NCBI GenBank assembly: GCA_026387165.1
Contig: JAPLMG010000015.1
Location: forward strand, 1 to 45,201
Source: Candidatus Omnitrophota bacterium
Lineage (GTDB): Bacteria; Omnitrophota; Gorgyraeia; 2-01-FULL-45-10
Reading direction: 5' to 3'
DNA length: 45,201 nucleotides
Part shown: one piece after another, positions 2,204 to 27,500 of the stretch
Numbering within the stretch: the stretch's first letter is position 1
Layout: each line of letters opens with the position of its first letter
The notes under the pieces: model-generated
The model's input: only the letters and a program-made list of their open reading frames with translations
What the model was told of the DNA's origin: nothing
Databases searched by the model: none
Translations under genes and position numbers: made by a program

Positions 2204-2816
2204 AAGATCGATACTGCCGGCTATTAAAAAACTTGGGCATCAGGTATTTACCACGCACGAATTGTCTTTGGCGTCGGGAAGATCGCTTTCCGTGGTAACC
2301 CAATCTCTCAATAACCTGGTAAGAGAAGGAGTTGTTATTAAAATACGCAGGGGCGTTTGGGCCGAAGAGGGTATTGGAGCGATAAGCCCTTATGCCGTGA
2401 TACCGTATCTGTTTCCCGCCCATCGGGCATATGTCTCATTTATAAGCGCGCTCCATATATATGGCATCATAGAGCAGATCCCGCTGGTAACGACAGTCGC
2501 ATCAACGGCCCACGCCGGGATCATCAAGACGAAGATAGGCACATTTTATGTGCATCATATAACGCCGTCATTCTTTTGCGGGTTCGGTTGGTATAAAGGC
2601 AGCGGCAGTTTCCTGATAGCGGAACCGGAGAAGGCGTTAGTAGACAGCTTATACATTTCGGCGTATAAAGGAAAACGGTTCGGGCGTTTTCCCGAGCTGC
2701 GCTTTCCAAAAACATTCAGTTTTAAAAAAGTTAAAGAATGGATAAACAAGATCCCCAGCCCGAACACCCGTAAGTATGTCAGGAAACAACTGAAAGAAGT
2801 TCACGCCGCCAAATAG
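2196..2816 (+). CDS. abiEi: AbiEi-family antitoxin / wHTH transcriptional regulator (COG5340-like)
   Basis: 206-aa ORF with an N-terminal wHTH-like segment (FTTHELSLASGRSLSVVTQSLNNLVREGVVIKIRRGVW). The typical AbiEi core is also present: AYVSFISALHIYGIIEQIP ... AEPEKALVDSLY. It is translationally coupled to abiEii. Confidence 0.8.
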   Translation: MRRRSILPAIKKLGHQVFTTHELSLASGRSLSVVTQSLNNLVREGVVIKIRRGVWAEEGIGAISPYAVIPYLFPAHRAYVSFISALHIYGIIEQIPLVTTVASTAHAGIIKTKIGTFYVHHITPSFFCGFGWYKGSGSFLIAEPEKALVDSLYISAYKGKRFGRFPELRFPKTFSFKKVKEWINKIPSPNTRKYVRKQLKEVHAAK

Positions 2817-2898
2817 GCACGTTTTTTGCACATCTCAAGACCCACTTTTTTACACTCCTAATCAATCCGCTAACTTTTTAATGTAACTCCTTGTGGAC

Positions 2899-3029
2899 TA
2901 TAATGTTGCAACTTTGTTAAGACTTAAAAAAGCCATAAATCCCATATTGACTTATAATGTATATATGTTACACTCCATGTGTAAGGATGAATAAAAAGAC
3001 AGTTATTAACACATAGTAAGACAAGAGGA
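2899..3029 (+). promoter_or_regulatory. AT-rich leader of the giant gene with -10-like boxes and a Shine-Dalgarno
   Basis: TATAATGT occurs twice (2899-2906 and 2953-2960), and TTGACT at 2947-2952 abuts the second copy. The direct repeat TTACACTCC is at 2850-2858 and 2968-2976. AGAGGA at 3024-3029 lies 9 nt before ATG 3039. No convincing -35 sits at correct spacing, so the promoter call is weak. The SD is good. Confidence 0.35.
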
Positions 3030-3038
3030 ATCTCCAAA

Positions 3039-15000: not shown

Positions 15001-18000
15001 AAGTGCGTAATACAGGCGGGGAAGATAAAACGTTTAAACTGGAGCTTAAGGGTATATTTGACGGCAAGAAGGTTGTGAGGCTGCCTAATGATGATAAATG
15101 GCATCTAATCCCCATAGAATTGCCAGGCGACGCCGCCTCACCGTTGGGTTATTTTGCCATATCCGATATTTTAAGCGCGTTTGAATTGAGAGGGGTATAT
15201 TTTTCCAAGGAGACGATAGAAATAGCGGCTCCTGAGGTCCAGAGGGTTCCTAAGCCGCAAGCGAAGCCGGCGGCAGCATCTGCTACAACGGCAACTGCGT
15301 CGGATGCGGCTACACCGGCGCCGGCGGTGACGTCCGCGCCTGCGACACAGCCTGCGCCTAAACCTGCGGTCAAGAAGAAACCTGTAGAGCAGGGAGCTCG
15401 CCCCACTACGTGGGAAGCGGCGCCTGCGCCCGCGCCGGCAGCAACTTCCGAAAAAGTCAGAGAAGATATCAGATCGTTATTCGTTTCGGCCGGCGCGGCA
15501 CTTGACGCGGCGGACAAAGCGCTTGATGCAAGAGACGCTGCCGGGGCGTCGAAGTCAATATCTGCGGCCAGCGGGAAATTCGGAGAACTCGTTTCGCTCT
15601 GGCAGCTGAATGAGCCCGTGGAAGAGAAGGCGCTGAAGGACCTGCAGGATCGCGTGCTCGACACGGCCGCCAGGCGCTCGAAAGAAGCGGAGCGTGAAAG
15701 ATCTATAAGTGGATGGTTAGGGTCGGTCCCGCAGCAGCTGCAGTGGGCGGCCGAACTTCTGCCCCCGCCAGCTAAGCCTGAACCAAAGGTGGCCGAACCT
15801 GAGCCGGTAGAGCGCGGCCTTAACATGTTATGCATAGCCGGGTTCTCTTTACTTCCGAACAGGGATCTGGAAACGTCCGTATCCCCGATATCAAATGACC
15901 TCGGATCAAGAGGTTATAAGGTAAGCCTCATAAAGCCGGGCGACCATATATTCCCGGATGGATTCGGAGAGTCGGGCGGGCACTATGTGGGAGAAGAGGC
16001 GTACATGGAGTGGTATGAATCGCACGACCCCGTTGTGCTCATCGGCACGGGCGCCTCGTCCGACGACGTCATGGGCGCGGCTAAAAAATTCATAGAGCTC
16101 GGCGGCAGGGCCGCGGATATCTTTATCGTACTCGTGGACGGCAATGCGGATTATGTAAAGAGCCTGCCTGATGGCGTGAAAGTATTGAGTTTTCATTCCG
16201 CGGCGTCGGGTGAGTTCGGGCCGATCAAAGGGGCCGCGAAGAATATAAGGATAGAAGGCGTCTCGCACAGAGATATCATAAAGGATAACGCTGTCGTACG
16301 GGGAAAGATAGTTTACGAGCTGTACGCCGCGCTCGAGGAGCGTGAACCGAGGCCGGTAAGGAAGGCGCCCGCAGCGCCCGTAAAGATCGCGGAGAATATT
16401 TTAGGTCTGATAGCCGATGCTGACGTCGCGCTTAAAATGGCGCGTGTAGAGCTCGCAAAGAATGAAGCCGGCAAAAACAGAGCGCGCATATATATTAAAA
16501 AAGCGGAGGACGCATTAAATAATCTTAAAAAACTGAAGGCGGAAGAAAAATATATATCGGCCCTCGGCGCTAGGATCGCCGCGTTTAACCGGCCTGCCGC
16601 CATTGAGCAAGACGATAAGATGGCCAGAAGAGATCCGGTGGTCGCGCAGGTTGAAGTATCCGAGATCGCCGGTATCATAGGCAGCGCTTTCCGCAAATAC
16701 GCATACAGCGATACCGCGGCAGGAAGCAAAGAGGGCGCTTACTTAAGTATGGATTCCCTTGCCGGGGAACTCGCGCTTGATATGCGTTATTATCTCGATT
16801 TCCAGCGGGATAAAGATGGTAAAAGCATAACGGCGCAGGACGTAAGGGAGGCCGCGGGCATAGCGTTAAGCGAGTGGCTCGCGAGGAATCCTGAAGCCGG
16901 CAATGATTTGCCCGGAATAATAGCCGATCTTATCACGGAAGAGACCGGGGTGATATTAAGGACGCTTTACATAGATGTTCCCGGATCCGAGGCAGAGGCA
17001 GCGGCCGACAATATTGCCGCCAGGGCCGCCGGGATGACGGGCAAGATCTCCGCCGGGATCGTAGGCAATGTCGCCTCCGCATTGACCGCAAAGCGTCCTG
17101 CACAGCCACCCGTGATGGAGATAAGAAGGCCGCTTAAAGCGAGAAGCCCTAAAGGCCGCAACAACGAATATGACATCAAATATAACGACTGGAGGCTGAT
17201 GGCCTATACTTTCGGAGAGGGCGCCGGCGCGAGAGATGGCGCGAGGTACGGATTGTTCGGGGCCGGCCACATAAAATACGGCTCAGGCGACGAATGGTTC
17301 CAGCCGAGGGACATCCCGGAAGCTGTCATGACAAGGAGAGACGGATTCTGGAAAGGATGTAAGAGGCTTCTCTTTAAAGAAGATATACAGGCCCTTAAGG
17401 ATAAGGGCTGGGAATTCTATAGTCCCGAAGAGGAGCCGCACATATCATACGAGAATATGACCGCCGCCGGTATCTTCATGGCGTCGCTGGAAAACATAGA
17501 TAATTATACAAGAATGAACGAAATAGCGAAGCAGCTGGGCATAGTCCTTACGGCTGACGACAAATTCCACCTGGATCTCATCGCGCAGGCCTCATTACCG
17601 GGAGGCGTGAGCGGCGGAGTCCAGCTTTGGTTCTATCTTAAGAACCCGGCCAAAGAGGTGAATGAAGAGATATCGTCGCAGAAAGAGAACCTGCAGAAGT
17701 TTGTCCGCTGTGACTATGTGCAGAAGATGCTCAACAATATATATGGCCTGAGGACGGCCCACAGGGAGGCGTCGGCGAGACTTAAGAACATGGAGAATTT
17801 CAAGGCGGAATTTGAGGAGATAGCAAAGCTCGCCGAGGCTAATAAGACGATAGAGAGAGCGGGATTTAAGATAGAGTCAACGAGAAAGATGATAGACGAT
17901 GCCATACGGACGGAGACCGATAAGATAATAGACGCGCGTACGGCGCTGAACAAGATAATGCGGCGCGCTCCCGAAGCTCCGTTTACTCTCAGCGAAGAGG

Positions 18001-21000
18001 AGTTCGTCGAATGGGACAGCCCTGAGTCGAAGAAAAGAGCTGATGTGCTGGAAAAGCAGATAACAGATAACATGGGCATGGCCCAGGCATCCTTCGCTTC
18101 CGAAGTCGGGTTAGCGAAAGCACATAAGAATCTGGGCGATCTGGGTTATGCGCTTGCCAAGGCCCGGAAGGAGCTGAGTATACTTCTGGGCATAAGCATC
18201 ATGTACGGATCCGACTCCGGAGCGAGCTCCGGCTTTATGCTGGAGTTCCGCAGGGACAAAAAGACAGATCTCATGGTATCCCGCCTGGGGGCGTTCAATG
18301 CGATCGCCGCGTTAAAGAATACCGAAGAGATGGCCGTGGTAAGAAGCGCCGTGCTCGCTAAAAGGCTTGATGCCATAAGAGAAGAGCTCGACTTTCTTAA
18401 TAAGAAATTGGCGCCCGCGACGCTAAAGATAAAAGAGGCCGAAGCCGAGCGTTACAAGACAACCGGGGATAAAGAAGGCCAGCCCCAGGTGCAGGTTGCC
18501 GATGTCAACGCCGCATATGCGGCGTACTTCTCCATACTGGATACTATCGCCCAGGCCCAGGCGGAGATAGAGAATATTGAGCGGGAAACCTCGACTCTCA
18601 AAAACTCGCTTACAGTCAAGACCAAAGAGATGGAGGATAAATTCAAGACGAAGGACAGCCTCATAGAGGCGCTCGTCAAGGCCGGGCAGGCCGAGATGAG
18701 GAAGCTTGACGCGACTCAAGTAACGCACATATCTCAAGATCCGCTATCCGAGATCGACGCCGGTATAAAAAATTCAGCCCAGGTCCTGGCGCTGGTGAAT
18801 GAAGAGACCGCCGCCAAGAGGGCCATGCAGGCGGTGCTTGCCCAGATACCTCAGGCCAAAAAATTCAAGGCGCTACTTAAGGAGAGGGAAGAGCTTGAAG
18901 CGGCGTATTATGAGGAGTACGAGAAGAGCCCTAACGAAGATACCGTAAAGAGGTTTATGGCCAAGAGCAGGGAGCTCGAGAAGAAGATAGACGTCATAAT
19001 GAATAACCTGCTCGATTTCGTGAATAAGACTGTTGAAGGTAAACAGGCGACGCTCGTGGGACAGAACTGGCTGGAAAAATTATTCAATGTCCGCAAGACG
19101 GTGAAATGCGAAGCGGTAGACATAGAGGGGTCGTTACCATCGGGCGGATTGTCTCTCAAGCTAAAGCTATTGATAGGTAAAGAATATTACGGTGAAGTGC
19201 GCCTCTTGAACCTCGCATGGCAGAAGGCGCAGAACAGGACCGTTAGCGCCAGGAATACGGTAGCACACAATATCGTTACGGCGCTGAATCAGATGAGGCA
19301 TACCAGGCTTTACCTCGCGGGAGAGAATAGCAGGCTTAAGGAGTCCGAGGCCGCGGCCAGGAGAATAGTAGAGAGGATCGCGGAATGGGAAAGCCGTCCG
19401 GATTCCGGAGAGCGGACGGAAGAGCTTAAAAAGCTTAAAGAGAACATGGCGAAAGAAGAAGCCCGCGGCGCGGAAATATCGATCAATGTCACAAGGGCCA
19501 AGACGCGCTTTAGCGAGCTGGAGATATCTTACAAGACCCTATTGGGCGTAGATCAGAAGACAGTTATTGATGTAAGCGTAATTATTGACTCATCGGACGA
19601 TAAGTTCAGGGACGCGGTAATGTTTGCGCTCTTTGATAAGGAAAAAGGACGGTTCGACAAGCGCCAGCTCAACAAGGAGAGGCAGATCAATATCGACATA
19701 CTCAGGGCCATAGACTACATGGCCAATGAAGATATACCTATACCGATAGAAATATTCATAGGCATGACAGGGGCGGGCATATACGCGGAATTGTTCAACG
19801 GAGACAAGAGGAGGCAGGTGGTCATCGGCAGAAAAGAGTCCGCCGGCGCTCTGAAGAGAGGGCTCGAGGCGTATAAGGACGAAGGCGCCGGGCTTTATAA
19901 TTCCAAACTCAACGCTGTAGACGAAAAAGATATAGCACTGGAACTTGCCGGACTTTTCCGCGGGAAGATAGAAAAAGCCGTTCTCGATGTCGAAAATGGC
20001 CCACGGGAAGAATCGGCATATGATGCGGACATCGACAGTCTCTCCCGAAAAGCGGACTATTTTAGGACGGTGCAGGACGAAGAGAGCGCCTTCGCGAACC
20101 ACCTCAACGCGTCCATAGTGGCCTCCGAACTCGACGACCCGGAAATTAAGGGCAAAGACACGAGAACTACCATAAGAGTTCCCGGCCTCAACAACCTGAC
20201 GATGAAGGATAAGAGCGCCGCGATAGAGGTTATGACTGCAAAAGAAGTGCTCAGCGCGGAGAAGGCGGCGTTCTTTTACAGGCCGCTCAGCGTATACGGA
20301 TTCGCGGTTATAGGATACGGCGCGCAGGGGGCTTATGTCAGCGGCGGCGGCGGAGCGGCCTCCGGCATCCCTGATACCGGTTCCAGCGGCAAATTGGGGC
20401 CATACGGTCCTATAATAGGCCCAAGCGGAGTCCCAGGCGGAGGCTCAGGCGGAGGCCCTGGCGCAATTCCAGGCGGAGGCAGCGGCAGCGGATCCGGCGC
20501 CAGCGCATCCAAAGGAGGCGGCGGAGGAGGCAGCAGTATCGCATTTAATGTAGGGTTGAACTTCGAGTATGAAATAAAAAAGCTGCTCAGCCAGGATCTC
20601 CCAAAAGCCAAAGAAAAATTAAAACTTTCAAAATTCGCTGAAGCCAAGGCCAACGGCGATAAGACGGTCATAGCGAGATCGATGGCGGCCAACATCATGT
20701 CCGAAGTCAACATGCTGGATTTGGCCAAGAGGCAGAAGCAAAGAGCCAGTGATGATAAGCTGCGGGTCGCCGGCCTATCCGACTCGTCCTTAAAAGGGAT
20801 CAGAAAATTGGGCGGGATGGAAGACGTGTCGGCGGAAGCGGACGTTTTTGTAAGAATATCCGAAAAAAGATCAAATCAGGCGCGGCTCGGGTACCAGACC
20901 GCCGCCGGCGAAACGAACGCCGATGTCATCATGACCCAAACGCAGAAAGAGACAATGGCTTTAAGTCCCGAGATGAGGGATCTTGTCGCGCCGTTCGCTT

Positions 21001-21035
21001 CGCGCGATCCGAGGATAAGAATACTTGAAAAATAG
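3039..21035 (+). CDS. Giant multi-domain membrane protein, part 1 (5,998 aa): signal anchor, TraB/ChaN-like, TM clusters, SecA-like ATPase, glycoside hydrolase-like, TolC/OEP-like
   Basis: Uninterrupted 17,997-nt ORF with a good SD. Protein-like composition throughout and several recognisable motifs (see sub-features). Antisense shadow ORFs cover it. An alternative in-frame start at ATG 3150 (M38) would place a classical signal peptide directly at the N-terminus. Confidence 0.92.
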   Translation: MNAWQARRKAPQSGDVEEVLSRGSLSTREELGARSLIMDLQSPRNKKWIRSIALVLVVCFINQDLVWAQEGTPVWSKGQGHSTGSGPGGNFAVKTQAVTPQGGIAIPKDVAVTKEVYKSTNGDARTVINIQDAHASLAAQESIASILDSLVTNYDLKLVAIEGSKGYIDTSLLKTFPDENIRKNTANYFMKKGKLSAGEFFSITSDKEISLYGIEDKRLYLENVEQFRKIQEINESTKKDIANLTAALENLKEKIYSKDLLLLDKNSVLHRDGKITFSERWDLVSKLAATQGVTYEKYENLSKLVESLKLEKKIDFQKANKERDALIDILSKKMVKTDLEQLVLRSLSFKQGKVSQGEYYLYLQELARHYGVDPEPYKGLITYTEYITLYESIDLVEIFEEVRKFEDSIKEKILKDDYQRKLHGFSRFVSLVSTLYELKLTGADTGELISYIPSLRGREAAEAISKGGIASLPSVARNDKELSISAETLAAFIKSASLKYGVAIEGGYDLGAIFAEIEPALSFYRTAEERNAAMLANTINEMQKNGQSVAALVTGGYHTKGLTEILKQRETSYLVILPKFDSSKGDRPYVAILTNKKEPYEKLLQTGDYYLATTSFFATQDNFNNAADIRAFIKELVLVAMAQAVLEEKNPKSVAEIWLNAYEGRQKQLGLRDSEVLFTRKELEGLIGSVEILTIEKGKTAVASIPTVSLRGEIGKEALYLKVVRAADETGVDIGVPTSGELASLIAAKKTLENRRPVVKPDDLEDRVARLEQETEKLKKYIKTQGPQDEALIIARLKEAGLFQYLVGQFEGQPADKITGDSLIAKLRAKGVRVRDFEGSAEVYGEVNSLLERVKAASASQLAITELATGGLITAARQRAIELAIGVDGKADILQVPPAVPVAPAPAPAAEAEASEAQRALILACLTEPLNENYKRLIDIFTTRKQTRSISDKELVIIDEKLKTALAGQLSGILPGNPAVAENLIDDESFRIFKNALQAELNKIRSLVRGLVEMCKDLPDDEVPEVVQELKGVYEPVDPGEGVPIDVGRLVDKMLGDRQITFALALLRNIDRMARAGRREEAIESMKKFDSFFPSDSDAMKDPGVMAERGRIRTLLNIDEGIYIREKPGKGPGLKGTINLLWLGAGITFLYHMVKSATPALAETGQGVQAIMGSGIHEGARAGLAAISTGNLAVAIFVAVAAFLICMEDFGISKRKQPAPLFPAGKTMLTGQPLEWQTPKFLSLDNTLGIINFIGIMAVAECAIGAGIGLLGFWTAIGVSFAFELVIIKTIARYTSLIDLKKHPFLNMAIAILYNKIFSKVFIGAAALLLINMARPPTQGEEIRAMVYTGQSRPMWNSIYRIVMFIALNFFIYAFLVVLGRAIRKWKKEPLPESNVNEKDRSFYRRLNLFLGIGNISIPAIILMLFWQRYVRILPAAFRIAVLSLGTVVLLMMSLSALKSYFSNRKAWAMVELSERIITSRRDRPVDWLLRGLMRRSKIGAGISLEEADKANTNLRLIAIALDELARKLRLGGEWAVDAVIAKANSVWNRFDGMKALEKADDKDAIKLLVRNRAKLGSLIYKKTASNLDRINASIGGIFGAGILARAIYERLIRGETPLHEPGVIQAGIGNNLLVLFAVLAAVVTAIVIVVKKLKGTAKQIGTVKEENAATKNARRRIRGASTAIENAKRRGEILREAQAKLLVDSLYACLVPGMPLDVADDLKGAVREVERACGKTLTSAVPAEKPKEKPGRTVQSAILATGLGMKVLSVLNVLNLDPAAAALFGIIGLALAAVATMSFAFTNRANILLFFAPPVPARGPPGARRPEAARQPGRAAQPQPSAITPRQISTSKPTFIQEIPLESRAARPSDPQQAAFYNALKERGMTISKGQLAAIIENTEAIEEGRKMVFDHAATGGGKTVIGYGTAYLWVAGERGRRAFVATAKDYDSKDNAEEAQNVFLTDALKDKKIRVAYITGGEGKRGEGRVANIYDYDTGGWREVPESRAYEDAQVIYADETYHRFFLQSKEGVRFARAPEHLGRVLMIHDEADNTRVLNRTPCVISGDLKPEAAAEVKDMEFVHANILAELGMRGEPAIKRSTHYFKSDDDSSRTTLDWIFGYRKLLALVFFKYRAQMKHRPFSEWRRTVETALTAQNNYLPDTAPVPDNGRHFKFYKVDRVYGDVVSIENGDPKYGQELPGGLHDSLRIIARTADPSLSGVIEPRGSRQTISRLTVESSDALPCMRATVLMTATGREALGQLYPDLKYVAVESAFPDNRIVNAPVFTDTDPNKWKAMIGEIGRHLSGPQLIDVRHEDIGIVEQKLREAFGSRVEVVVYKGTLPEGQRTDIIANAGKPGRITLIDDTLTRGVTIKLLEEASRQEGLHLYLTHIKLFKILIDQLIGRVGRQGLPGTVHQFYSKEDLRKLGLLVSEKIRENLVEPLMRRLGRPIPGSGGVYEDTVPGGRRKFEDLEGLSGIEEEIFGRDRILDTHLAETMSSHRREISRDGRIYDAADKIFEEMAADPERTAKEALEMINSPRSLELIRRRAVLIKRSSVERSLAELFTSSIFYGLDDPQRQAFVRAITQLIERERIEEAAVKIRSRIREAVILLVGPRVDRARTGYITAAEEMKDDGATEIERSADQTKDASLTGAAKARFEGERKNVATMLKASALEMLGGEIEDKRAQQKEITVLPGKARVARVSVYGGLTSLYYYYIYQGIISPLLSSGGLGRSVEGLFSFLPAISGLGPAVLTVITFTAIILVLTLRSSYLKRIAQMNVADIRMKCVLTGQEPALKEPLLFGNYLLYKHFLNPVAFMTLPVALVLMLSATSPLMLGLVGMTVTQALVAAAFSGVSGLIASLLIMVVYGRQKVPGSEKEEPPLVWAEKSVKGYKINLASISRGAALVIAAKILYPALISGGMMSVLIAPVIVLGAVLASHLLLKRFFAVQKGGGIESKTFFGGRSSLLGYAIGAGLAVTVLSIALSASGGVALYAGIAGLIMTGAYALSGAMQFAGQSKSVVTRAGVGRKYLGEKGFANIILGVIENASMNLIMLAPVILTIAQFNIKSFFIASVAPSALALSGYILAPLFLLIGVYLILAYKDIVPMVRSKKVMAALGIASAGSVALGAYRQNIQAATASQQALEDYFTRLEEKLGPSRGVSPEVVARRDRLVAQAYRDLTAEAQKSVTISTDAIIGKIASERFNQALQPYLDSYNAASAAANTALAQKDKPDFKKAQEEFGKAAAALAGINNIDPNLMKFTEITEPKGFVLALNRAARYIAGVARVSPDRVPFGVIRKNITIAEQIAKLNKQKDDIAKEARLFPYREQYKEGVNNVTAAFSGEGLPDFAAIDSAFTKAAGALIEINKIDPKIVTEEQIGNLKKKQEAYSKLAKFATPEGGMAAVGPAAGPGPGAGAPPPPPEDKAATQAAAIPGAPGMAAQAIAAASMGQLPSTTDQPDIKFAVTPEMAGVIAQNASYFAYDIGVDRATGLPYNHIVLSGNSISSTGAYCNPTDIGLYLDIMASVANGKIKMKSVTPQEALGRIKKALGTLLNIQKRAADNWKGLFSWYQFRGGNAVRDEASKVSAVDNANLCWSLAAVIGALQGDPANKGIVNAANDIINAQASGWADLYDSDKGLMRAGYDLTGRGYLTYWLDRRYNESRTATAWAILHSNGKVPVSAFTNMKYPSNPEQYATSDGKNITGRMSWDGAIFQALMPLLWIDENRISPDSYARAHRDTVEVQIDHAMKTKKLPALLSTSYGTDGNYRAYGVPALAETVVSFGNKNQVFDDVASPHTLALAALVDYDRASGLITNLEKKHPKIKTPYGWRDGINARGETSDTICAIDQGMLVLALLGPTNSGYVSAYLNNVEGRMDQLYWIYGAKRPVAETKPKTEVKAAAETRPSAETEPAAAARAAPKTIGFTTLPKDIAQRLGANLLDNMDRFSGTITPEKKEGVFQMPAAEHGWTGTTVGNKNLTGFKYAYIEVRNTGGEDKTFKLELKGIFDGKKVVRLPNDDKWHLIPIELPGDAASPLGYFAISDILSAFELRGVYFSKETIEIAAPEVQRVPKPQAKPAAASATTATASDAATPAPAVTSAPATQPAPKPAVKKKPVEQGARPTTWEAAPAPAPAATSEKVREDIRSLFVSAGAALDAADKALDARDAAGASKSISAASGKFGELVSLWQLNEPVEEKALKDLQDRVLDTAARRSKEAERERSISGWLGSVPQQLQWAAELLPPPAKPEPKVAEPEPVERGLNMLCIAGFSLLPNRDLETSVSPISNDLGSRGYKVSLIKPGDHIFPDGFGESGGHYVGEEAYMEWYESHDPVVLIGTGASSDDVMGAAKKFIELGGRAADIFIVLVDGNADYVKSLPDGVKVLSFHSAASGEFGPIKGAAKNIRIEGVSHRDIIKDNAVVRGKIVYELYAALEEREPRPVRKAPAAPVKIAENILGLIADADVALKMARVELAKNEAGKNRARIYIKKAEDALNNLKKLKAEEKYISALGARIAAFNRPAAIEQDDKMARRDPVVAQVEVSEIAGIIGSAFRKYAYSDTAAGSKEGAYLSMDSLAGELALDMRYYLDFQRDKDGKSITAQDVREAAGIALSEWLARNPEAGNDLPGIIADLITEETGVILRTLYIDVPGSEAEAAADNIAARAAGMTGKISAGIVGNVASALTAKRPAQPPVMEIRRPLKARSPKGRNNEYDIKYNDWRLMAYTFGEGAGARDGARYGLFGAGHIKYGSGDEWFQPRDIPEAVMTRRDGFWKGCKRLLFKEDIQALKDKGWEFYSPEEEPHISYENMTAAGIFMASLENIDNYTRMNEIAKQLGIVLTADDKFHLDLIAQASLPGGVSGGVQLWFYLKNPAKEVNEEISSQKENLQKFVRCDYVQKMLNNIYGLRTAHREASARLKNMENFKAEFEEIAKLAEANKTIERAGFKIESTRKMIDDAIRTETDKIIDARTALNKIMRRAPEAPFTLSEEEFVEWDSPESKKRADVLEKQITDNMGMAQASFASEVGLAKAHKNLGDLGYALAKARKELSILLGISIMYGSDSGASSGFMLEFRRDKKTDLMVSRLGAFNAIAALKNTEEMAVVRSAVLAKRLDAIREELDFLNKKLAPATLKIKEAEAERYKTTGDKEGQPQVQVADVNAAYAAYFSILDTIAQAQAEIENIERETSTLKNSLTVKTKEMEDKFKTKDSLIEALVKAGQAEMRKLDATQVTHISQDPLSEIDAGIKNSAQVLALVNEETAAKRAMQAVLAQIPQAKKFKALLKEREELEAAYYEEYEKSPNEDTVKRFMAKSRELEKKIDVIMNNLLDFVNKTVEGKQATLVGQNWLEKLFNVRKTVKCEAVDIEGSLPSGGLSLKLKLLIGKEYYGEVRLLNLAWQKAQNRTVSARNTVAHNIVTALNQMRHTRLYLAGENSRLKESEAAARRIVERIAEWESRPDSGERTEELKKLKENMAKEEARGAEISINVTRAKTRFSELEISYKTLLGVDQKTVIDVSVIIDSSDDKFRDAVMFALFDKEKGRFDKRQLNKERQINIDILRAIDYMANEDIPIPIEIFIGMTGAGIYAELFNGDKRRQVVIGRKESAGALKRGLEAYKDEGAGLYNSKLNAVDEKDIALELAGLFRGKIEKAVLDVENGPREESAYDADIDSLSRKADYFRTVQDEESAFANHLNASIVASELDDPEIKGKDTRTTIRVPGLNNLTMKDKSAAIEVMTAKEVLSAEKAAFFYRPLSVYGFAVIGYGAQGAYVSGGGGAASGIPDTGSSGKLGPYGPIIGPSGVPGGGSGGGPGAIPGGGSGSGSGASASKGGGGGGSSIAFNVGLNFEYEIKKLLSQDLPKAKEKLKLSKFAEAKANGDKTVIARSMAANIMSEVNMLDLAKRQKQRASDDKLRVAGLSDSSLKGIRKLGGMEDVSAEADVFVRISEKRSNQARLGYQTAAGETNADVIMTQTQKETMALSPEMRDLVAPFASRDPRIRILEK
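3150..3243 (+). other. Signal peptide / signal-anchor segment
   Basis: MDLQSPRNKKWIRSIALVLVVCFINQDLVWA|QE has a basic n-region, a hydrophobic h-region and a VWA-Q cleavage-like site. Confidence 0.6.
3412..4790 (+). other. TraB/GumN/ChaN (Tiki-superfamily)-like domain
   Basis: N-terminal INIQDAHASLAAQESI...LVAIEG and C-terminal EERNAAMLANTINEMQKNGQSVAALVTGGYHTKGL resemble the paired (G)xxH / E / ER / GxxH motifs of this superfamily. This is from memory, with a long insert between the halves. Confidence 0.35.
4397..4475. repeat. 79-bp nested palindromic (REP/MITE-like) element carried in-frame inside the giant ORF
   Basis: Outer inverted repeat GTCATTGCGAG (4397-4407) / CTCGCAATGAC (4465-4475). 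Inner inverted repeat CGAAGCAATC (4421-4430) / GATTGCTTCG (4442-4451). Arm hairpin GGCCGC-GAA-GCGGCC (4407-4421). It is translated as SLRGREAAEAISKGGIASLPSVARND. Confidence 0.6.
6445..8480 (+). other. Transmembrane cluster 1 (multiple hydrophobic helices with one soluble helical insert)
   Basis: Example segments: LLWLGAGITFLYHMV, LAVAIFVAVAAFLICM, IINFIGIMAVAECAIGAGIGLLGFWTAIGVSFAFELVII, IVMFIALNFFIYAFLVVLG, ISIPAIILMLFW, LLVLFAVLAAVVTAIVIVV, LFGIIGLALAAVATMSFAF. Confidence 0.7.
8660..10330 (+). other. Divergent SecA-type DEAD motor ATPase module
   Basis: Walker A ATGGGKT (8781-8801). MIHDEADNTRVLNRTPCVISG (DEAD at 9180-9191) compares with SecA DExD..L.DEARTPLIISG. LMTATG compares with GMTGTA. 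IIANAGKPGRITLIDDTLTRGVTIKL compares with IIAQAG..GAVTIATNMAGRGTDIKL. IGRVGRQGLPGTVHQFYSKEDL (10242 onward) compares with [21 protein letters not shown]. An insert of about 185 aa sits at the PPXD position. Confidence 0.75.
11150..12430 (+). other. Transmembrane cluster 2
   Basis: Example segments: LGPAVLTVITFTAIILVLTL, VAFMTLPVALVLMLSA, ALVAAAFSGVSGLIASLLIMVVY, MSVLIAPVIVLGAVLASHLLL, GAGLAVTVLSIALSA, LIMLAPVILTIAQF, ILAPLFLLIGVYLILAY. Confidence 0.7.
13420..14650 (+). other. (alpha/alpha)6-barrel glycoside hydrolase-like domain (putative glucoamylase / DUF3131 / GH144 beta-1,2-glucanase-like)
   Basis: NPTDIGLYLDIMASVANG...GLFSWYQF...VSAVDNANLCWSLAAVIGAL ... PYGWRDGIN...ICAIDQGMLVLALLG. This follows the pattern I recall for the family: TSxTNIGLYL ... 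G.(L/F)YNWYD ... VSTVDSGNL ... YGF.D.(F/I)N ... IDQG. Confidence 0.55.
19140..19555 (+). other. TolC/OEP-type repeat 1
   Basis: GGLSLKLKLLIGKEYYGEVRLLNLAWQKAQNRTVSARNTVAHNIVTALNQMRHTRLYL...ISINVTRAKTRFSELEISYKTLLG follows the outer-membrane efflux protein repeat pattern: beta strands, then paired long helices ending in ...L..LLG. Confidence 0.45.
20340..20538 (+). repeat. Gly/Ser/Pro-rich low-complexity tract
   Basis: SGGGGAASGIPDTGSSGKLGPYGPIIGPSGVPGGGSGGGPGAIPGGGSGSGSGASASKGGGGGGSS, followed by a beta-strand-like IAFNVGLNFEYEI. Confidence 0.8.
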
Positions 21036-21510
21036 GTCGAGATAGGTAAGCTGAACGTGACGCAGGCTTGGATAGACAGGTTCATACCGAGCATCAAATT
21101 GAGAGCGGTAGTTTCGGCGATGCAGCGCCTCGTAGGAGTCGAGATCAGGATTCCGATAATTACAGGCGGCGAGCAACAGGCCAACCAGCGCATAACAGAG
21201 CTTGAGCTTAGTAATATCAGATCATCACTTTCCGATGAAAATCGAGAAGTCTTCGATGAATTATACGCGATGTTTACGGAGCTCGAAAGGACGCTTAAGG
21301 ACCTTGAAGGCAGCGAGATAGCGCTTGCCTGGGCGTACGAGAATTATGAAAATGCCCGGAAAGATCTTGAACGGGGGGCTATCGATGAGATAGCGTATGT
21401 AGCGGCGATCAAGGCCTTAAACGGAGCCGAAATAAGATACACTGCGACAAGAGATAGTTATATTAAGCTCGATACGCTGCTCCGCGCGAGGCTCAATAGT
21501 TACGGCCTGA
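20955..21510 (+). other. TolC/OEP-type repeat 2, interrupted by the in-frame TAG
   Basis: LSPEMRDLVAPFASRDPRIRILEK*VEIGKLNVTQAWIDRFIPSIKL...VGVEIRIPIITGGEQQANQRITELELSNIRSSL...DLERGAIDEIAYVAAIKALNGAEIRYTATRDSYIKLDTLLRARLN. This matches the OEP consensus shape: NPdl..a...v.aa.a.v..a....lPsl.l ... l.lPlfdgG...a.i..a ... y.aG.....dvl.a...l..a......a...y......L. Confidence 0.55.
21033..21035 (+). other. Single in-frame TAG separating two giant ORFs of identical frame
   Basis: 3039 and 21120 are both 0 mod 3. The 28 codons from 21036 to 21119 contain no stop, so the TAG is the only interruption in 42,162 nt of open frame. Confidence 0.95.
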
Positions 21511-24500
21511 CCAATAAAGAGATCGCCGAAATGGAGAGGGATGCCAGAGGCAAAGAGGGCGTCGAGGAGGCTGCGAGAGCCGGCGCGGCCAGGAAAGCGG
21601 AAGCGATAAAGGCTGTGGAGCCCGCGCGCGATGCCGAGCTGAGAAGGCTTGAAGAAAAAGAGCGCGAGGCGGTCGTGATCGCCCAGAAGAGGGAAGAGCG
21701 CGAACGCGCCCGGGGCCAGAATCCGCTTGAGAAGCAGAGACTTACAGAGTCAGAGAGAGCGGCGCAGGCGTTATTAAAAGGCGCTCTCGATGCCGACGCC
21801 GAGAAAGCCGAAAATACGATGAAATACAGGGTGCGTTCCGAGATCTTTAAGGACGCGATCATCACACCTAAATACGCGACAGGTGTGAAGTCCTATTATT
21901 CGATAGCGATGGAGAGCCTGCTGACTACCATCGGGATGCCTTTTGGTGTTACAGGGGACGGCTGGGAAAGGGCGGTAAAGATCGACGACTGGCTGGATGT
22001 GGTAAATTCTTACGTCGTTACCCACAACGCGCAGTTCAACATGAATAACAGGCTATCCTTGATGGAGCAGACATACAAAGGCCTTAGCCCTGCAGAGAAA
22101 GATCAGTTAGAAAGGATCTCGAGGAGGCCCAATCAGCCCATCAGATGGGACAGACACTGGGAAGGATATTTCACCAGCGCGCAGATAAATACGCTGAATA
22201 TCCTGTTCAAAGGAAACGAGAGAAAGATCGCCAGCCAATATCTTGATGACGGAAAGATCAATCCCGCGTGGATCGGCCTTTCCAAGATAGGCATCTTAAG
22301 TTACGCGGCCAACAGGCAGATAGCCGATTCTACAAAATCGGCCCTGGGCGTTGTAAAAGAGATCCTGGCTAATGAAGCGATATTTGATAGAGAGCAGAGG
22401 TTCAGGGATCCGAAGAGCGAGGAAGACAAAAACTGGCCGGACAAAGATAAGGCGCTCGACGGATATACCGAATGGCTGCGCAAAACAAGACTGTCCTTAG
22501 ACAATATAGAGTTTTTAAATATACCGGAAAGCGCGAAGCTCGCGGATGGCGGTCCGATCTATCAGGTCAGGCGTTTGATCAAGAATATCTTCGGCAATGA
22601 GCGCGCGATATTCGGCGATTACACCGGCCGCGGCTCGGTGGAGGTATGGAACCTGTACCGGCTATTGTCGCGCCTCGCAAAGCCCGGAACGGAAAGGGGC
22701 CAGTATAAGGGTCTCGAGAACATACTTAAGCTGCTGCATGGCCTGGTCGTGGAGGGCAGGGGCTCGCTCCTGGACTTCTATGGACAGTATGACGAAAAGC
22801 GGCTGAAGGCTCTGCCTGAAGCGTTGAATTTAAGAAAGCTCATCGACGAAAGAGAAGACTACCGCGCCGCTCTCGAAGCCGCAAGGCCGGGCGATGACTC
22901 CGCGGCTCTGAAAGAGAGATTAAATTCCAAAGAGGCGCAGATACAGCGGGAAATGGATATATTAAGAGAGGGTCGTCTATATGGAAACGCCCTTTCCGTG
23001 CTGAGGTTTGCTCTCGAGTCGCCCGAGAATAGTGACATATTGGCTAAACTCGGGACCGGCGATCTCGCGTCCGGAGATACCGATAAGATAATGGATTTTG
23101 TAAGCTATTACTACAAGACCATGGATACTGCCCTGCCGTATCTTGAGAGAGTGTATGATGATCTGCCAAACGGCACCATCGACAGGGACAATCCCGAACA
23201 TATAGGTATACTGAGCCACTTCTACTCGCTCAGAGCGGCCAATAAATGGACAGACGACGAGACGCGGTATCTCCTGCAAAGGTTAGTCTCCGCCAAGGAA
23301 GAGGCGAAGGAATTTCTCGCGATGCTGCGCAATACGATGGTGGATCAAATAACCTTCGACTCCAAAGACACCGGAACCGTCGGCTTCTTATTCGGCCACG
23401 TATTCGCCCGCATCCAGAACGGCTGGGACAAAACGGCCATCAGGGACAGGATCCCGATCATGGGGATGATAAAACCGTGTCTTGAAGCATATCACGGTTA
23501 TAAGATAGATGATAAGGGCACGCCTGAAGAGCAGGCTGATAAAATAGGCAATCTGCTATATTGGAATAAGTTCCTTAAGGAAAATTTGAAAGATGATTTT
23601 GAGCTTTTCAAAGATATTCTCAGTAACCGCAAGGCGGTATCGCAGGCTATTAAGGAGGCGGATCGTGAGCAGTTAGAAACTGCCTTAGCGCAGGCAGATA
23701 AGCGCACAGAGGCTGAAAAATTTGCCATAGCCGTAGCGATTCTAAAAGATCAGAAGCTTGAAGAATGTGTCAGGGCGGATATTGAGGAAAGAAGGACAGT
23801 TGCCGGCAGGGCGCTTTCGCCGGGCGAAGAAACCGCAGTACGCGCAGCTGCCGAAAAAGCGTTTAATGAGTTATACGGCCTCCATATGATGGGGCCGCGC
23901 TATGTGGAAGCGGCAAAGCTCGCCGACGCCGAAAAAGACCGCCGTGTAAAAAAGCTGAACAAGGAGTTCGGACAGATATACGCTCTCTATATGGCCGAAC
24001 GCCGGCTATTCACAGAAACCAAAAAGGCGGTGAGAAGTAAGGCGTTGGAGGCGCTGTATGTCATAGATCCCTCTACTCAAGAGAGGCGCGCTGAGATCGA
24101 TAAGGAGCTTATGGAGCTCGAGAAGAAGGATGAAGAAGAATTCCTCAGGTTATATAAGAGCGGATTTATCTCCTCGGTCGCGGACGCGTTGATAGTCGAC
24201 GCCGGTTTCGTCAGGCTGACCGGAAAAGCATCGATAGTCAAGAATATATCCGATGTGGGCAATGTTATAGCGCTAAGGAATTTATTGACCAGCCTGAAGG
24301 ATGAGGGTATTCTCGCGGCTGCCGAGAAGGGGATGGATTTTGAACTTGAAAGAAGGAGGTATCTAGATAAACGCCGCGGGGAGATAGAGGCGAGCCTAAA
24401 AAAAGCCGACGTTAGCTTAGATGAAAATACTAAAAAGTCGTACATGAAAACCAGCGAAGAAAGCTTCGCCCATATCTACGGGCAGGGCGTCATAAACTCA

Positions 24501-27500
24501 AGGACGAATTCATTCTTCCTTGAGGGCCGGGCCGATCCTGCATTGGTCAAGAAAGTGCTGTACGCCGAATACTTTGTAGATAAGCTTGCGAAACTGAACT
24601 GGCGACCGTTAAATGCGGGCGAGGTGGGCAACTGGTCATGGGATCTAATGGAGATGATCTATCTTACCGAAAAGCAGCGCAAGCTTCCGGAGGCAGAGAA
24701 GGCGGCCATGCTTAGCGCTGACTTGAAAGATGCTTTCGACATAGCGGATTGGGAAGCATCCGCCGGTAGGGTCTTAGAAGCGAAAAAGCACATGGCGAAC
24801 CTCTTTAGCATGATAGATCGTGTGCAGAGGGAGCGCGTCAAGGCCGTGGACGCCACCAAAAAATATCTTGCCAAAAAAGAGAAGACGGCTGACGGGGCAT
24901 TCAAACTGCTATTCACCGCTCTTGAAGGTATAAGTGAGGCCGATCTCAAAAAAGCGGGCATAAGCGAAGCCGAAAGAGCCGAGATAGAAGCTCTAAGAGG
25001 CAAGATAGGAGCCTTAAGAAAGATGACGGAAGAGTCCGACGCGTCAAAGCAACCGTCTCTGCGCGAGGATATAGAGAGAGCCGACAGGTCAAAAGATGAT
25101 TTTCTGCGGCTTGACAGGGAGGTAAAAAGAGAGACAGAGTTAGGAGTGGCGCTCAGCGATATTGATGCGCTCCTGCTCCGGGCGGCTTCGTTGGATGCAG
25201 GTGTTGTCAAGGAGCTAAAAGAAGCTATCATTGACCTGGGTACGGCCAGGACTAGCGTAACGAAAGACGGCGAGAATGAATTTGGGGCTGCGTACCCTTC
25301 GGACGCGGCCGAATCTTTTGTCGAAGGATTATTTAAGAAGTTCGACAAGGTTTTTGAAGAGCTGAGAAAAGCCAAGGAGAGAGAGCTCAAAGATGGCAAG
25401 AGCCTTTACGAGAAAGTGAAGGCTGTCGAGGGGCGTCTCAGGGAAGAGCTGAGGAAAGAAGAGCTGGCCGGCTCTGAATTCGCCACGGGTAAGGCCTATA
25501 TTGACAGGGTCAATCAGCGGTTGGATGAATTGCGGCAGAAGGTCAGAGGCACATGGAGCTCGAGGTCGCTTGCGGTGAAGAGGGCAAATCTGGAAAATCT
25601 GCAGAAGGCGCTCGAGGACGCGAAGCTCTTCTATAATCTCGATACATACCGGAAGAAGCATAACGACGAGTTCTCCGTCTCCTCAGGACAGCTCCGCTAT
25701 GAAAAGATCCTGGAGCAGCTCATCTCCGAGAGTATGCCCTCTGATGCATTGGCGGCAAGGTTGGCGTCGTTAATAGAGATAGATAAGAAGAAGCTGGAAG
25801 GCGAAACTATAAACGGAGTCTATCTGAATTCCGTATACAGGGCCAACGGCAAGGAGCTGGAGACCGGGGAGCTCGGGTTCTTCCAGGGCGAGATACGGGA
25901 GAGCGTCCATCTCGGGGAATTAAGAAAAGCGTACGAAGACGACCTCATCAAAAAGGAAAATAAGACGAAGGAAGAGGCGAGCGTTCTGGGAGAATGGTTC
26001 CTAAGAGAGAGGATAGGCAAATATGTGAGATACGAAGCCCTTGTGACGGGGCTTGAGGAACTATTGATGCGCGATCAGGGCATTACGGATATGAATAGCC
26101 CGGAGGCAAAAAGGCTCAGGATGACCCGCGGCCAGAAGATAGGTCTCTTTATGAGCCTGGAAAAGAGGGTCTGGAAGGAAGAAGAAGAGATAGCGTATCT
26201 GAAAGAGTGGTTTAAGGACGCCTCTTTGGTACAGACATTCGCCGGGGAGCATCTGGGGTATCGCCTTGCCCACTCGCTGCTCAGTTATACCGTAGAAGTC
26301 ATGAGGAGCGGATTCGGCATGCCCGTACTGATGAATAGTGTTGATAGGTTAAGTATAGAGTTCCAGAAAGCCTTCCCGTATCAAATGGCTTACATGAATA
26401 TAGGGGATCATTTAAGGAGTATGGAGGCCGCCCTCTGGAACGAAAGGGAGTTATCGGTCATTCCCGACGATTCCATGACGGACCTGATATTGGAAAATAC
26501 ATTCTACAGGAATGGCGATCTTGACAGGGTATACAGGGCGGAGGCGATAGGGCAGTTGTACAGTTTCCACAACCAGGTCTCTTACCGCTTATCAATGGCA
26601 GATTATGGTAAGGACAAGGTAACGTATAGGGACCTGGAGAATACCGCGAAAGCGTTAGACTCCGTTATGATGCCGGAGATAGCATATAATGCCGCGAACG
26701 GCATACCCAAGCTAACCAAAGACTGGATGAGGAAGAATAAGGAGACCCTTGACGGATGGTTCGAAGGCCGCCGAGGTGAAAAGGACGCGAGGAAAGCCAG
26801 GGCTTTGAAGTATGAGAATAGCTTGAAGAATCCGGACAATATCCCGGCCGCCTTGAAGGAGACGGGCGATGAGCTCTCTAAGGCATGGAAGGCCCGGGGC
26901 AACACAGACCCGATGAACGAGGATCTAGCATGGTACTTCCAAAAGATCATGCTGTCCACCGGGATTTCCGCCGAAGACCTATTAAAAGTCACTTATGAAT
27001 ATCCGGCCGATATAGAGAAGGTCTGGGAGGAGGTTAACGGCCGTAAGCCTACTGAGGCGGAGTCCGGGAAGATCAAGTATTACGCGAGCAAGATGGACCT
27101 TGACGGCTGGACGCTGAATTACGTAAAGACGATACTTGTTTACGGTAATTATATTAGCGGCCTTATGGAGACTCTCCGCTCCGCCAAGCCCACAGAGGTC
27201 GAGGTGGAGAACCTTGTCAGGCTTGCCATAGATAACGGCATCTTGCCTGCGGACCCATCAATACCCGAGGCTAAAGGGGGCCTTGGTATAGAGATCGACA
27301 GTTTGAGCGTCGGCGCTCTCCTAGATAAAAAAATGCCGTTAGCGAGAGTCATCGATCTTACTAAAACGATCCACAGCAAGATCAATTCCCCCAAGATATC
27401 TATAGATGATGTGCTATATCTCGTAGGTCTTGCCATGGATACGAACATAGCGAAGCCGCCGGAGGAGGAGCGCTTTTCTTTAAGCAGGGAAGAAGTGAGA

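Follow-up and report, generated by a model that had tools for sequence, protein, structure and literature searches.

A single in-frame TAG within a TolC-type repeat probably marks a point lesion in one giant Candidatus Omnitrophota gene

The window, that is, the whole 45,201-nt stretch of DNA that was analysed, carries a giant reading frame on the forward strand that is interrupted once, by a TAG at 21033..21035 (+). We consider it likely that both parts of this frame belong to one giant gene, and that the TAG is a point lesion of the GAG-to-TAG type, whether real or artefactual. An outer-membrane-factor domain and two homologous proteins continue across the stop, and signals of a gene boundary are absent there. 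The evidence points to the TAG being neither a designed gene boundary nor a recoding site. The proteins of the contig (MCX5666753-56) are named Candidatus Omnitrophica/Omnitrophota bacterium, which places the window in an Omnitrophota genome.

The ORF scan of the contig showed that the frame of ATG 3039 extends from 2988 to 45201 (14,054 codons) and contains exactly one in-frame stop, codon 5999. The preliminary description of this DNA had called the TAG the only stop across 42 kb, and the scan agrees. The two other forward frames contain 1,123 and 905 stops. With stops at the density observed, a run of 8,055 codons free of stops beyond the TAG would arise by chance with a probability of approximately 10^-244. 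The upstream part, ORF1 (3039..21035, +), consists of 5,998 codons plus the TAG and was deposited as MCX5666756.1 (NTY34_00360), a 'hypothetical protein' of Candidatus Omnitrophica bacterium. The same-frame continuation, ORF2 (21036..45200, +), holds these 8,055 codons and runs off the contig end; besides the remainder of the OEP repeat and a conserved domain block, it encodes an array of HEAT repeats and, from aa 8377 onward, hydrophobic clusters. In exact look-ups, the AbiEii protein, ORF1 from Met38, ORF2 from ATG 21120 and the fragment from the Logan assembly described below were absent from the record. Single-base changes able to create a stop in the giant frame number 5,272 (4.2%), which makes it a large mutational target.

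The stop lies within an OEP/TolC-type repeat (PF02321) at 20988..21494 (+), aa 5984-6152. When the TAG was replaced by X and the two sides were joined, PF02321 gave one alignment spanning the stop (profile 6-186 of 187, 50.7 bits, E 2.6e-13), above the gathering score of 22 bits. ORF2 alone matched profile 47-186 with 39.8 bits, so that joining both sides raised the score from 39.8 to 50.7 bits. A product starting at the first ATG after the stop (21120..21122, +) retains profile 66-186 only and is without the first β-strand. The HMM and the two homologues described below thus bear out the earlier reading that both sides of the TAG form one continuous outer-membrane-factor repeat, and that a protein from ATG 21120 would begin mid-repeat. 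The TAG was also rightly placed inside the repeat, with one correction: it is not mid-domain and lies near the N-terminal edge, at about profile position 21 of 187. The stop does not fall on a boundary of the domain. A second OEP-like stretch (19113..19376, +, aa 5359-5446) remained below threshold with 18.0 bits against a cut-off of 22, and the full-length TolC model TIGR01844 reached 20.9 bits against a cut-off of 225, over profile 273-357 only. A single-chain, six-repeat pseudo-trimeric TolC barrel was considered and dropped, as neither an HMM of the junction repeat nor hhalign of sub-blocks gave significant internal repeats.

Residues from aa ~6028 to 6149 gave a profile match to residues 279-394 of E. 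coli TolC (PDB 2xmn_A, E 3.2e-5). The aligned part of TolC comprises strand S5 and helices H7-H8 of its second structural repeat, and this match places the stop within the helix equivalent to H6 and not at the edge of a domain. Within the OEP repeat, the TAG interrupts the first helix, and a putative β-hairpin (IPSIKLRAVVSAMQRLVGVEIRIPIITGG; 21084..21167, +) follows about 17 residues later, wholly downstream of the stop. Conserved among the homologues, the hairpin aligned with the strand VGLSFSLPIYQGG of TolC; this comparison suggests its assignment as strand. AlphaFold2 with 3-sequence alignments predicted no strands (mean pLDDT 43.9 for aa 4985-6175 and 54.2 for aa 5950-6172), and these low-confidence models drew the hairpin region as coil or helix.

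HMMER was run exhaustively with the junction against 1.84 billion representatives. Only two relatives were found, P0001 (7,976 aa) and P0002 (4,048 aa; MDP2929933.1, 'TolC family protein, partial', Candidatus Omnitrophota), at 26-29% identity. Each of them matches residues from both sides of the TAG within one protein. The block collinear with both covers 17109..23408 (+), where aa 4691-6255 correspond to P0001 and aa 4885-6790 to P0002. In BLASTP, single HSPs of 1,608 and 2,020 columns cross the stop, with E values of 2.5e-120 and 4.4e-149, respectively. MAFFT placed a Glu opposite the stop in both proteins without a gap and with invariant residues on both sides. Alignment of homologous giant genes over this position had been proposed as a check of continuity; both of the two homologues are uninterrupted, and neither is split there. 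Two homologues at this identity show that the continuity is ancestral, and they say nothing on the window's own lineage. The P0002 contig has a frameshift approximately 1,125 codons upstream of the position equivalent to the TAG. Lesions in this giant-protein family are idiosyncratic, since this one lies elsewhere. Close relatives of the locus were not found in genome, metagenome or viral contig collections by DNA and related-locus scans, and these scans yielded no population or orthologue DNA apart from locus L001. Word-index protein searches likewise gave no match, but this negative carries little weight, as candidates were swamped by low-complexity words or had too few exact words in common and even the deposited ORF1 was missed.

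The giant protein has 49 hydrophobic windows, which occur in clusters. In ORF1, a signal-peptide-like hydrophobic segment at aa 48-66 is followed by clusters at aa 1192-1802 and 2738-3100. The last putative transmembrane segment before the stop is at 12282..12338 (+, aa 3082-3100), and the first one after it is at 28167..28223 (+, aa 8377-8395). No hydrophobic segment was found between aa 3100 and 8377, over about 5,270 residues. In P0001, the homologous junction is likewise inside a 3,870-aa stretch free of hydrophobic segments. The Pfam scan of ORF1 found a glucoamylase-like domain (PF10091, 32.5 bits, above the cut-off of 27) and a weak match to the SecA P-loop (24.8 bits, below the cut-off of 27). 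Methyltransferase, NUDIX and peptidase domains had no matches in the domain scans of ORF1 or ORF2. We propose that the region from 3039 to beyond 45201 is one Candidatus Omnitrophota gene within which the contig ends. Its product, at least 14,053 residues long, would be a membrane protein with multiple domains and multiple passes; its topology is predicted from the hydrophobic segments. The loop of ~5,270 residues between two membrane-segment clusters would presumably be extracytoplasmic and carry the glucoamylase-like domain, the TolC-like (OEP) module and a conserved block without known function. In the last OEP repeat, the cut made by the TAG would fall in the first helix, shortly before the β-hairpin.

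The mutational path to such a lesion may be short, as the Glu codon of the homologues could have changed from GAG to TAG in one step. The stop is in frame, stands where the relatives have a sense codon, lies inside a domain and is accompanied by no boundary signals, as in other point lesions. This lesion could have two origins. The TAG may be a real and very young nonsense allele in the sampled population, an origin to which we give somewhat less than an even chance. Translation would then be truncated after residue 5998, and the remainder would be untranslated or poorly translated. Such an allele must be very young because the 24 kb downstream are still perfectly open. The other origin would be an error in the metagenome-assembled genome, either of the consensus or of the local assembly, which we consider possible but somewhat less likely than the first; the cell would then make one polypeptide. 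Because the 8,055 downstream codons are open, a real lesion must be younger than approximately 0.05-0.09% neutral divergence; otherwise it is an artefact. The choice between these two origins is inferred. Plain G-to-T consensus errors are rare in short-read assemblies, which counts against an error. Over 2095-4361 the contig agrees at 100% identity with a Logan assembly of SRR20698647 made independently; the contig is thus not generally error-prone, at least there, and this also counts against an error. A precedent for the lesion reading exists. Once a local assembly error had been corrected, two neighbouring giant genes on one contig turned out to be a single gene of 74,983 aa (West-Roberts et al. 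2023, bioRxiv 10.1101/2023.11.21.568195). The preliminary description had offered four explanations for the TAG. Two of them, a recent nonsense mutation or population variant and a sequence or assembly error, are the ones that we favour; readthrough and a deliberate split gained no positive support.

Signals at the junction and the use of TAG elsewhere bear on these other explanations. TAG is the stop codon of the AbiEii gene (1421-2203) and of the AbiEi-like gene (2196-2816), as the preliminary description had stated, and the length of each product suits its Pfam domain. These are two of the contig's three other genes, and one of them has its TAG in a ATGCGTAG overlap of the kind typical of coupling. 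A lineage-wide reassignment of TAG as a sense codon, which the earlier description had already judged unlikely, is supported solely by the in-frame TAG itself, and a sense codon would recur many times in 14,054 codons. Since TAG occurs once in 42 kb, reassignment is effectively refuted and its probability is negligible. Programmed or leaky readthrough, via a suppressor tRNA, near-cognate decoding or pyrrolysine, would yield mostly the 5,998-aa product and a minor full-length form, in a ratio set by the readthrough. The continuation is in frame, the frame after the TAG is intact, and only readthrough can join both parts. Against this, the stop context is UAG-G, and UAG followed by G is an efficient termination context, as established for E. 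coli RF1. The downstream RNA structure is neither stable nor unusual (fold z = 0.38). The contig has no tRNA, and therefore no suppressor tRNA, and no match to an Rfam family. TAG ends neighbouring genes, and at the position of the in-frame stop the homologues have an ordinary Glu, so the stop is not conserved. Bacteria use programmed readthrough of UAG very rarely, and we regard readthrough here as highly unlikely. Frameshifting was rejected, as the continuation is in the zero frame and the -1 and +1 frames close after 6 and 3 codons, respectively. Misassembly at a repeat was also rejected; no repeats occur within about 500 nt of the stop.

In a functional split, the TAG would be fixed, and translation would re-initiate at GTG 21057 (or at TTG 21099 or ATG 21120), so that the downstream protein gives the TolC-like module its last OEP hairpin and helices in trans. 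This GTG (21057..21059, +), 21 nt beyond the stop, is the earliest codon at which translation could restart, and an AGGT precedes it with about 10 nt between them. In favour of a split, the frame after the TAG stays open for 24 kb, the Pfam repeat is interrupted when only about 15 of its residues have been made, and ORF1 was annotated by NCBI as a separate CDS. However, the Shine-Dalgarno duplex of GTG 21057 (-4.5 kcal/mol) is unexceptional, at the 25th percentile of internal start-like codons. The three candidate starts together rank at approximately the 22nd-53rd percentile among 653 such codons, in keeping with the earlier view that no strong Shine-Dalgarno sequence serves a downstream start. 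No sigma-70-like promoter or intrinsic terminator was found in 20500-21700 and there is no intergenic spacer, which upholds the claim that the TAG lacks a terminator and a gap. The cut falls in a helix, not in a loop, and both homologues are continuous at the junction. The N-terminus of ORF2 would also have to reach the outer membrane, yet its first 2,377 residues have no signal peptide or hydrophobic segment, as the earlier description had stated for a downstream product. With aa 3100-8377 free of hydrophobic segments, a separate ORF2 product would be without any export signal for its outer-membrane-bound part. A functional split is therefore very unlikely. The intact 24 kb downstream are equally expected from a functional split or from readthrough, and even taken jointly these two readings are unlikely. 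That the TAG is real and maintained, with two polypeptides by design or a fixed ratio of short to read-through product, is in our view quite unlikely.

One giant gene with a point lesion, the reading that we prefer, has consequences for annotation. MCX5666756.1 and the next partial CDS would be one giant gene, interrupted or mis-assembled, and the true product, if intact, would exceed 14,000 residues. For surveys of giant genes, a 42-kb frame can acquire a stop through any of more than 5,000 single-base changes; adjacent same-frame giant ORFs thus need merging or a check of the reads before they are counted. If the stop were instead fixed and the downstream part expressed, this would be an unusual split or recoded outer-membrane module, and a split or recoding would offer a way to break up or dose the translation of a message of more than 40 kb.

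Deep within this giant membrane protein of Omnitrophota lies a TolC-like (OEP) repeat whose conservation extends to the only two homologues that could be detected. It is unmentioned in the giant-gene literature that was searched, and it may be of more lasting interest than the stop. The TolC/OEP module had no occurrence in either of two giant-gene preprints, including West-Roberts et al. 2023 (bioRxiv 10.1101/2023.11.21.568195). Judged from its sequence, the repeat hints at how part of a giant protein could anchor in or cross the outer membrane.

Among known systems, the giant proteins of Omnitrophota (Archaeovorin-type; Velamenicoccus archaeovorus) come from the same phylum as the window gene and P0002. 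Shared features are an ORF of tens of kilobases, an N-terminal signal-like segment, clustered hydrophobic segments, a SecA-like P-loop stretch (sub-threshold here), a glycoside-hydrolase-like domain, HEAT arrays, and very few and very divergent homologues. 'Two giant genes' adjoining through a local error are also known there (West-Roberts et al. 2023, bioRxiv 10.1101/2023.11.21.568195). Unlike the Archaeovorin-type proteins, the window gene shows at least 14,053 codons before the contig end, and membership of the 30,000-aa class cannot be claimed. With the TolC/OMF family (PF02321; PDB 1ek9/2xmn) it shares one repeat with strand S5 and helices H7-H8 and the conserved GG after the strand. Whereas TolC is a protein of approximately 450-500 aa, this repeat lies thousands of residues deep in a giant one; the full-length model is far under its cut-off, and a second repeat is sub-threshold only. 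Pyrrolysine decoding and programmed readthrough resemble the present case in the in-frame UAG and the intact frame after it, but here TAG is used as a normal terminator nearby, the stop is unconserved and a stimulatory structure is absent. The likeness to point-lesion genes in metagenome-assembled genomes consists of a lone in-frame stop at a codon that is sense in the homologues, the lack of boundary signals and a second family member that is frameshifted elsewhere; unlike in an old pseudogene, the 24 kb downstream are free of secondary decay.

The giant frame runs on the forward strand from ATG 3039 to the last base of the contig and comprises 14,054 codons with one stop, the TAG at 21033–21035 (codon 5999), exactly where the preliminary description had placed it. 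The remaining two forward frames contain 1,123 and 905 stops. Were stops equally frequent in the giant frame, a run as long as ORF2, the 8,055 open codons that follow the TAG, would arise by chance with a probability of about 10^-244. The window corresponds to a whole contig (45,201 nt) from a metagenome-assembled genome that NCBI lists under Candidatus Omnitrophica/Omnitrophota bacterium. Proteins MCX5666753.1 to MCX5666756.1 are the first four encoded on it; the last of these, MCX5666756.1, is ORF1, the part of the frame before the TAG, recorded at NCBI as a 5,998-aa hypothetical protein (NTY34_00360). A signal peptide of the classical type (MDLQSPRNKKWIRSIALVLVVCFINQDLVWA-QE; window 3039–3236) begins only at Met38 (ATG 3150). 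SD strength was −8.8 kcal/mol at ATG 3150 and −6.0 kcal/mol at ATG 3039, and the giant gene may start at 3150 instead of the annotated 3039. The other genes encode a Bro-N protein (268–1125, stop TAA), the toxin AbiEii (1421–2203, stop TAG; PF08843) and an AbiEi-like protein (2196–2816, stop TAG; PF13338 at 22.3 bits, below the cut-off). The AbiE pair is ordered AbiEii then AbiEi-like, with an 8-nt ATGCGTAG overlap at 2196–2203; the antitoxin gene usually comes first in AbiE pairs. The Bro-N gene just upstream of this pair suggests a mobile or defence islet beside the giant gene.

A single giant Omnitrophota gene spans the region, and one TAG interrupts it where the homologues have Glu, within the first helix of a repeat of the OEP/TolC type. 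When the translations were joined with X at the stop, one alignment to Pfam OEP (PF02321) spanned the TAG (nt 20988–21494; profile positions 6–186 of 187; 50.7 bits; E = 2.6e-13), beginning 15 residues before the stop and ending at residue 6152. ORF2 by itself scored 39.8 bits, with a match beginning at profile position 47, and the product from ATG 21120 covers positions 66–186 only. The stop had been described as lying inside the repeat and the ATG 21120 product as starting mid-repeat, and both hold; the stop itself is at about position 21 of 187, close to the N-terminal edge, not mid-repeat. A three-sequence profile of the region matched residues 279–394 of E. coli TolC chains with solved structures (E = 3.2e-5); this segment comprises strand S5 and helices H7–H8 of the second structural repeat. 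The order of elements in TolC is H6–S4–S5–H7–H8. By this known topology, the TAG sits in the H6-equivalent helix, which starts at 'DP' of SRDPRIRILEK, about 17 residues ahead of the hairpin IPSIKLRAVVS...VGVEIRIPIITGG. Support for the remainder of a 'TolC-like module' beyond the spanning repeat is weaker. The upstream stretch aa 5359–5446 reached 18 bits against OEP, under the cut-off, the full-length TolC model reached 20.9 bits (cut-off 225), and profile–profile comparison gave no clear internal repeats. Two AlphaFold2 runs on three-sequence alignments gave unusable models (pLDDT 43.9 and 54.2). About 170 codons ahead of the stop, a Gly-rich 12-nt periodic repeat (GGSGGGPG...; window 20405–20488) forms a loop roughly 70 residues long that separates the putative β-strands VYGFAVIGYG... 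and ...SIAFNVGLNFEYEI.

With the 505 residues centred on the stop as query, HMMER was run exhaustively against 1.84 billion cluster representatives and returned two proteins only: P0001 (7,976 aa; ENA, from a 48.5-kb contig) and P0002 (4,048 aa; MDP2929933.1, 'MAG: TolC family protein, partial', Candidatus Omnitrophota bacterium, GCA_030691955.1). Each matches both flanks of the stop within one polypeptide. Single BLASTP HSPs joined window aa 4691–6255 to P0001 936–2453 (E = 2.5e-120) and window aa 4885–6790 to P0002 1–1881 (E = 4.4e-149). Orthologues that break at the stop, which the preliminary description would have counted against one gene, were not seen; both homologues are continuous there. 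In the MAFFT alignment, the stop column has no gap, holds Glu in both homologues (residue 2199 in P0001; codon GAA in P0002) and is flanked on each side by invariant residues (I-6, then L, A, D, R, P). TAG would be reachable from the Glu codon GAG by one transversion. Judged from these sequences, the ancestral state is one gene, because both homologues run through the stop position unbroken. No close relatives were found in genome, metagenome and viral collections and word-index protein searches gave no match, which are weak negatives, because even ORF1, present in the protein collection, was never returned by junction queries; the lack of near-identical matches is thus not evidence of nonexistence. 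A glucoamylase-like domain (PF10091; window aa 3394–3933, nt 13218–14837) is 42% identical to P0001 aa 6358–6870. In the window this domain precedes the TolC-like block, whereas in P0001 it follows that block at a distance of about 4,000 residues, so domains have been shuffled within the giant genes. The OEP-type repeat and a conserved downstream block with no assigned function (window 17109–23408; motifs WxRHYEG, RALNxNDW, LSYAA and EVWNxYRLL) are shared by all three members known, and in each of them lie between membrane clusters, in a long stretch that has no hydrophobic segments.

The preliminary description had left the possible readings of the TAG unranked. We believed that an undesigned lesion, mutation or error, is favoured over a split or readthrough, which would act here without boundary or recoding signals. 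No sigma-70-like promoter or intrinsic terminator was found in 20500–21700. Among 653 in-frame ATG/GTG/TTG codons within the same giant gene, anti-SD pairing ranked at the 25th percentile for GTG 21057 (−4.5 kcal/mol), the 53rd for TTG 21099 (−2.7 kcal/mol) and the 22nd for ATG 21120 (−5.1 kcal/mol), in line with the earlier remark that the junction has no strong SD or terminator. A functional split, in which ribosomes would re-initiate at GTG 21057, is unlikely, given this pairing, the relatives unbroken at the site and an ORF2 without an export signal over 2,377 residues. By hydropathy, the frame has a signal-peptide-like segment at aa 48–66 and hydrophobic clusters at aa 1192–1802 and 2738–3100, and the next hydrophobic segment is at aa 8377. 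The stop thus falls centrally in 5,270 residues that lack hydrophobic segments and have putative membrane segments on both flanks. P0001 is laid out alike (segment 486–519, next at 4387, equivalent junction near aa 2199). As part of one unbroken polypeptide, the segment-free stretch could be exported as one giant loop behind the preceding membrane segment. The first 2,377 residues of ORF2 contain no signal peptide, as had been proposed, and no anchor. The N-terminal strands of ORF2 should insert in the outer membrane, and a deliberate split is disfavoured because the lone product would start with such strands and have no export signal.

Programmed or leaky readthrough of the TAG is very unlikely: RNA spanning the stop and the sequence beyond it folded no better than shuffles (z = 0.38), the contig carries no tRNA, and the base after TAG is G. 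UAG followed by G is an efficient termination context in E. coli. No Rfam family was found on the contig. Reassignment of TAG to sense, which the preliminary description had called unlikely, is hardly credible, with one TAG in 14,054 codons and with two of the three remaining genes, abiEii and the abiEi-like gene, ending in TAG, one via the classic ATGCGTAG overlap. Frameshifting to join the parts was rejected, since ORF2 continues in the same frame as ORF1 and the shifted frames close at once, the −1 frame after 6 codons and the +1 frame after 3. The TAG is therefore probably an undesigned point lesion. A young nonsense allele has not far short of an even chance, and a consensus or assembly error is a possibility to be held more tentatively. 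No repeat able to seed misassembly was found near the stop.

In ORF2, 4.4% of the possible single-base substitutions give a stop. If ORF2 were untranslated and drifting neutrally, with indels at 10–20% of substitutions, a second disabling change would be expected by about 0.01–0.02% divergence (median), with 95% probability by 0.05–0.09%. ORF2 has no second disabling change, so either the TAG is not real, or it is an allele that arose very recently or varies within the population, or ORF2 is still selected through translation. Across the whole frame, a stop can be reached by one base change in 5,272 ways, and stop lesions are thus expected to be common in giant genes. In L001, the contig of P0002 (GCA_030691955.1), a second, independent interruption of this small family is seen: a frameshift near nt 1355–1370 breaks the homologous giant gene into two called genes overlapping by 43 nt; window aa 4535–4874 aligns in frame 3 and aa 4872–6790 in frame 2. 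This frameshift is about 1,125 codons upstream of the position equivalent to the window's stop. Breaks at differing positions in differing members fit lesions or errors, not conserved architecture. The Logan assembly of SRR20698647 has a contig (L002) 100% identical to window 2095–4361, which indicates that the contig is accurate over that interval.

L002 stops just short of a palindromic REP-like element (window 4399–4474; TCATTGCGAG...CTCGCAATGA, with internal hairpins), which lies in frame within ORF1 and encodes ...EAISKGGIASLPSVARNDK... there. A related core, GAGATTGCTACGCTTCGCTCGCAATAAC, is intergenic at 1188–1215, after the Bro-N gene. L001 begins with tandem 33-nt repeats coding AVILREAEGRP (1–170), and the same peptide (RAPVILREAEGRPKDLKNQILRR) occurs again within P0002 at about aa 1330; this repeat may be an element that entered the giant gene in frame and that made the contig break off there. 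A HEAT-repeat array (PF13646, 214 bits, 9 stretches) occupies window 39500–41400, where 192-nt units 90% identical at 40911–41294 indicate recent tandem duplication within the giant gene.

Giant Omnitrophota genes encode many transmembrane segments, SecA-like domains and glycosyl hydrolases, and Illumina-only assemblies contain errors (West-Roberts et al. 2023, bioRxiv 10.1101/2023.11.21.568195). TolC, readthrough and stop codons are unmentioned in that preprint and in a 2026 Omnitrophota complete-genome preprint (10.64898/2026.06.07.730766), as is the OEP-type repeat with its conserved block, and our literature search found no paper joining TolC, Omnitrophota and giant. Overall, this case is a further example of an already known situation, and what deserves remembering above all is that a TolC-like repeat is embedded in a giant protein of Omnitrophota.
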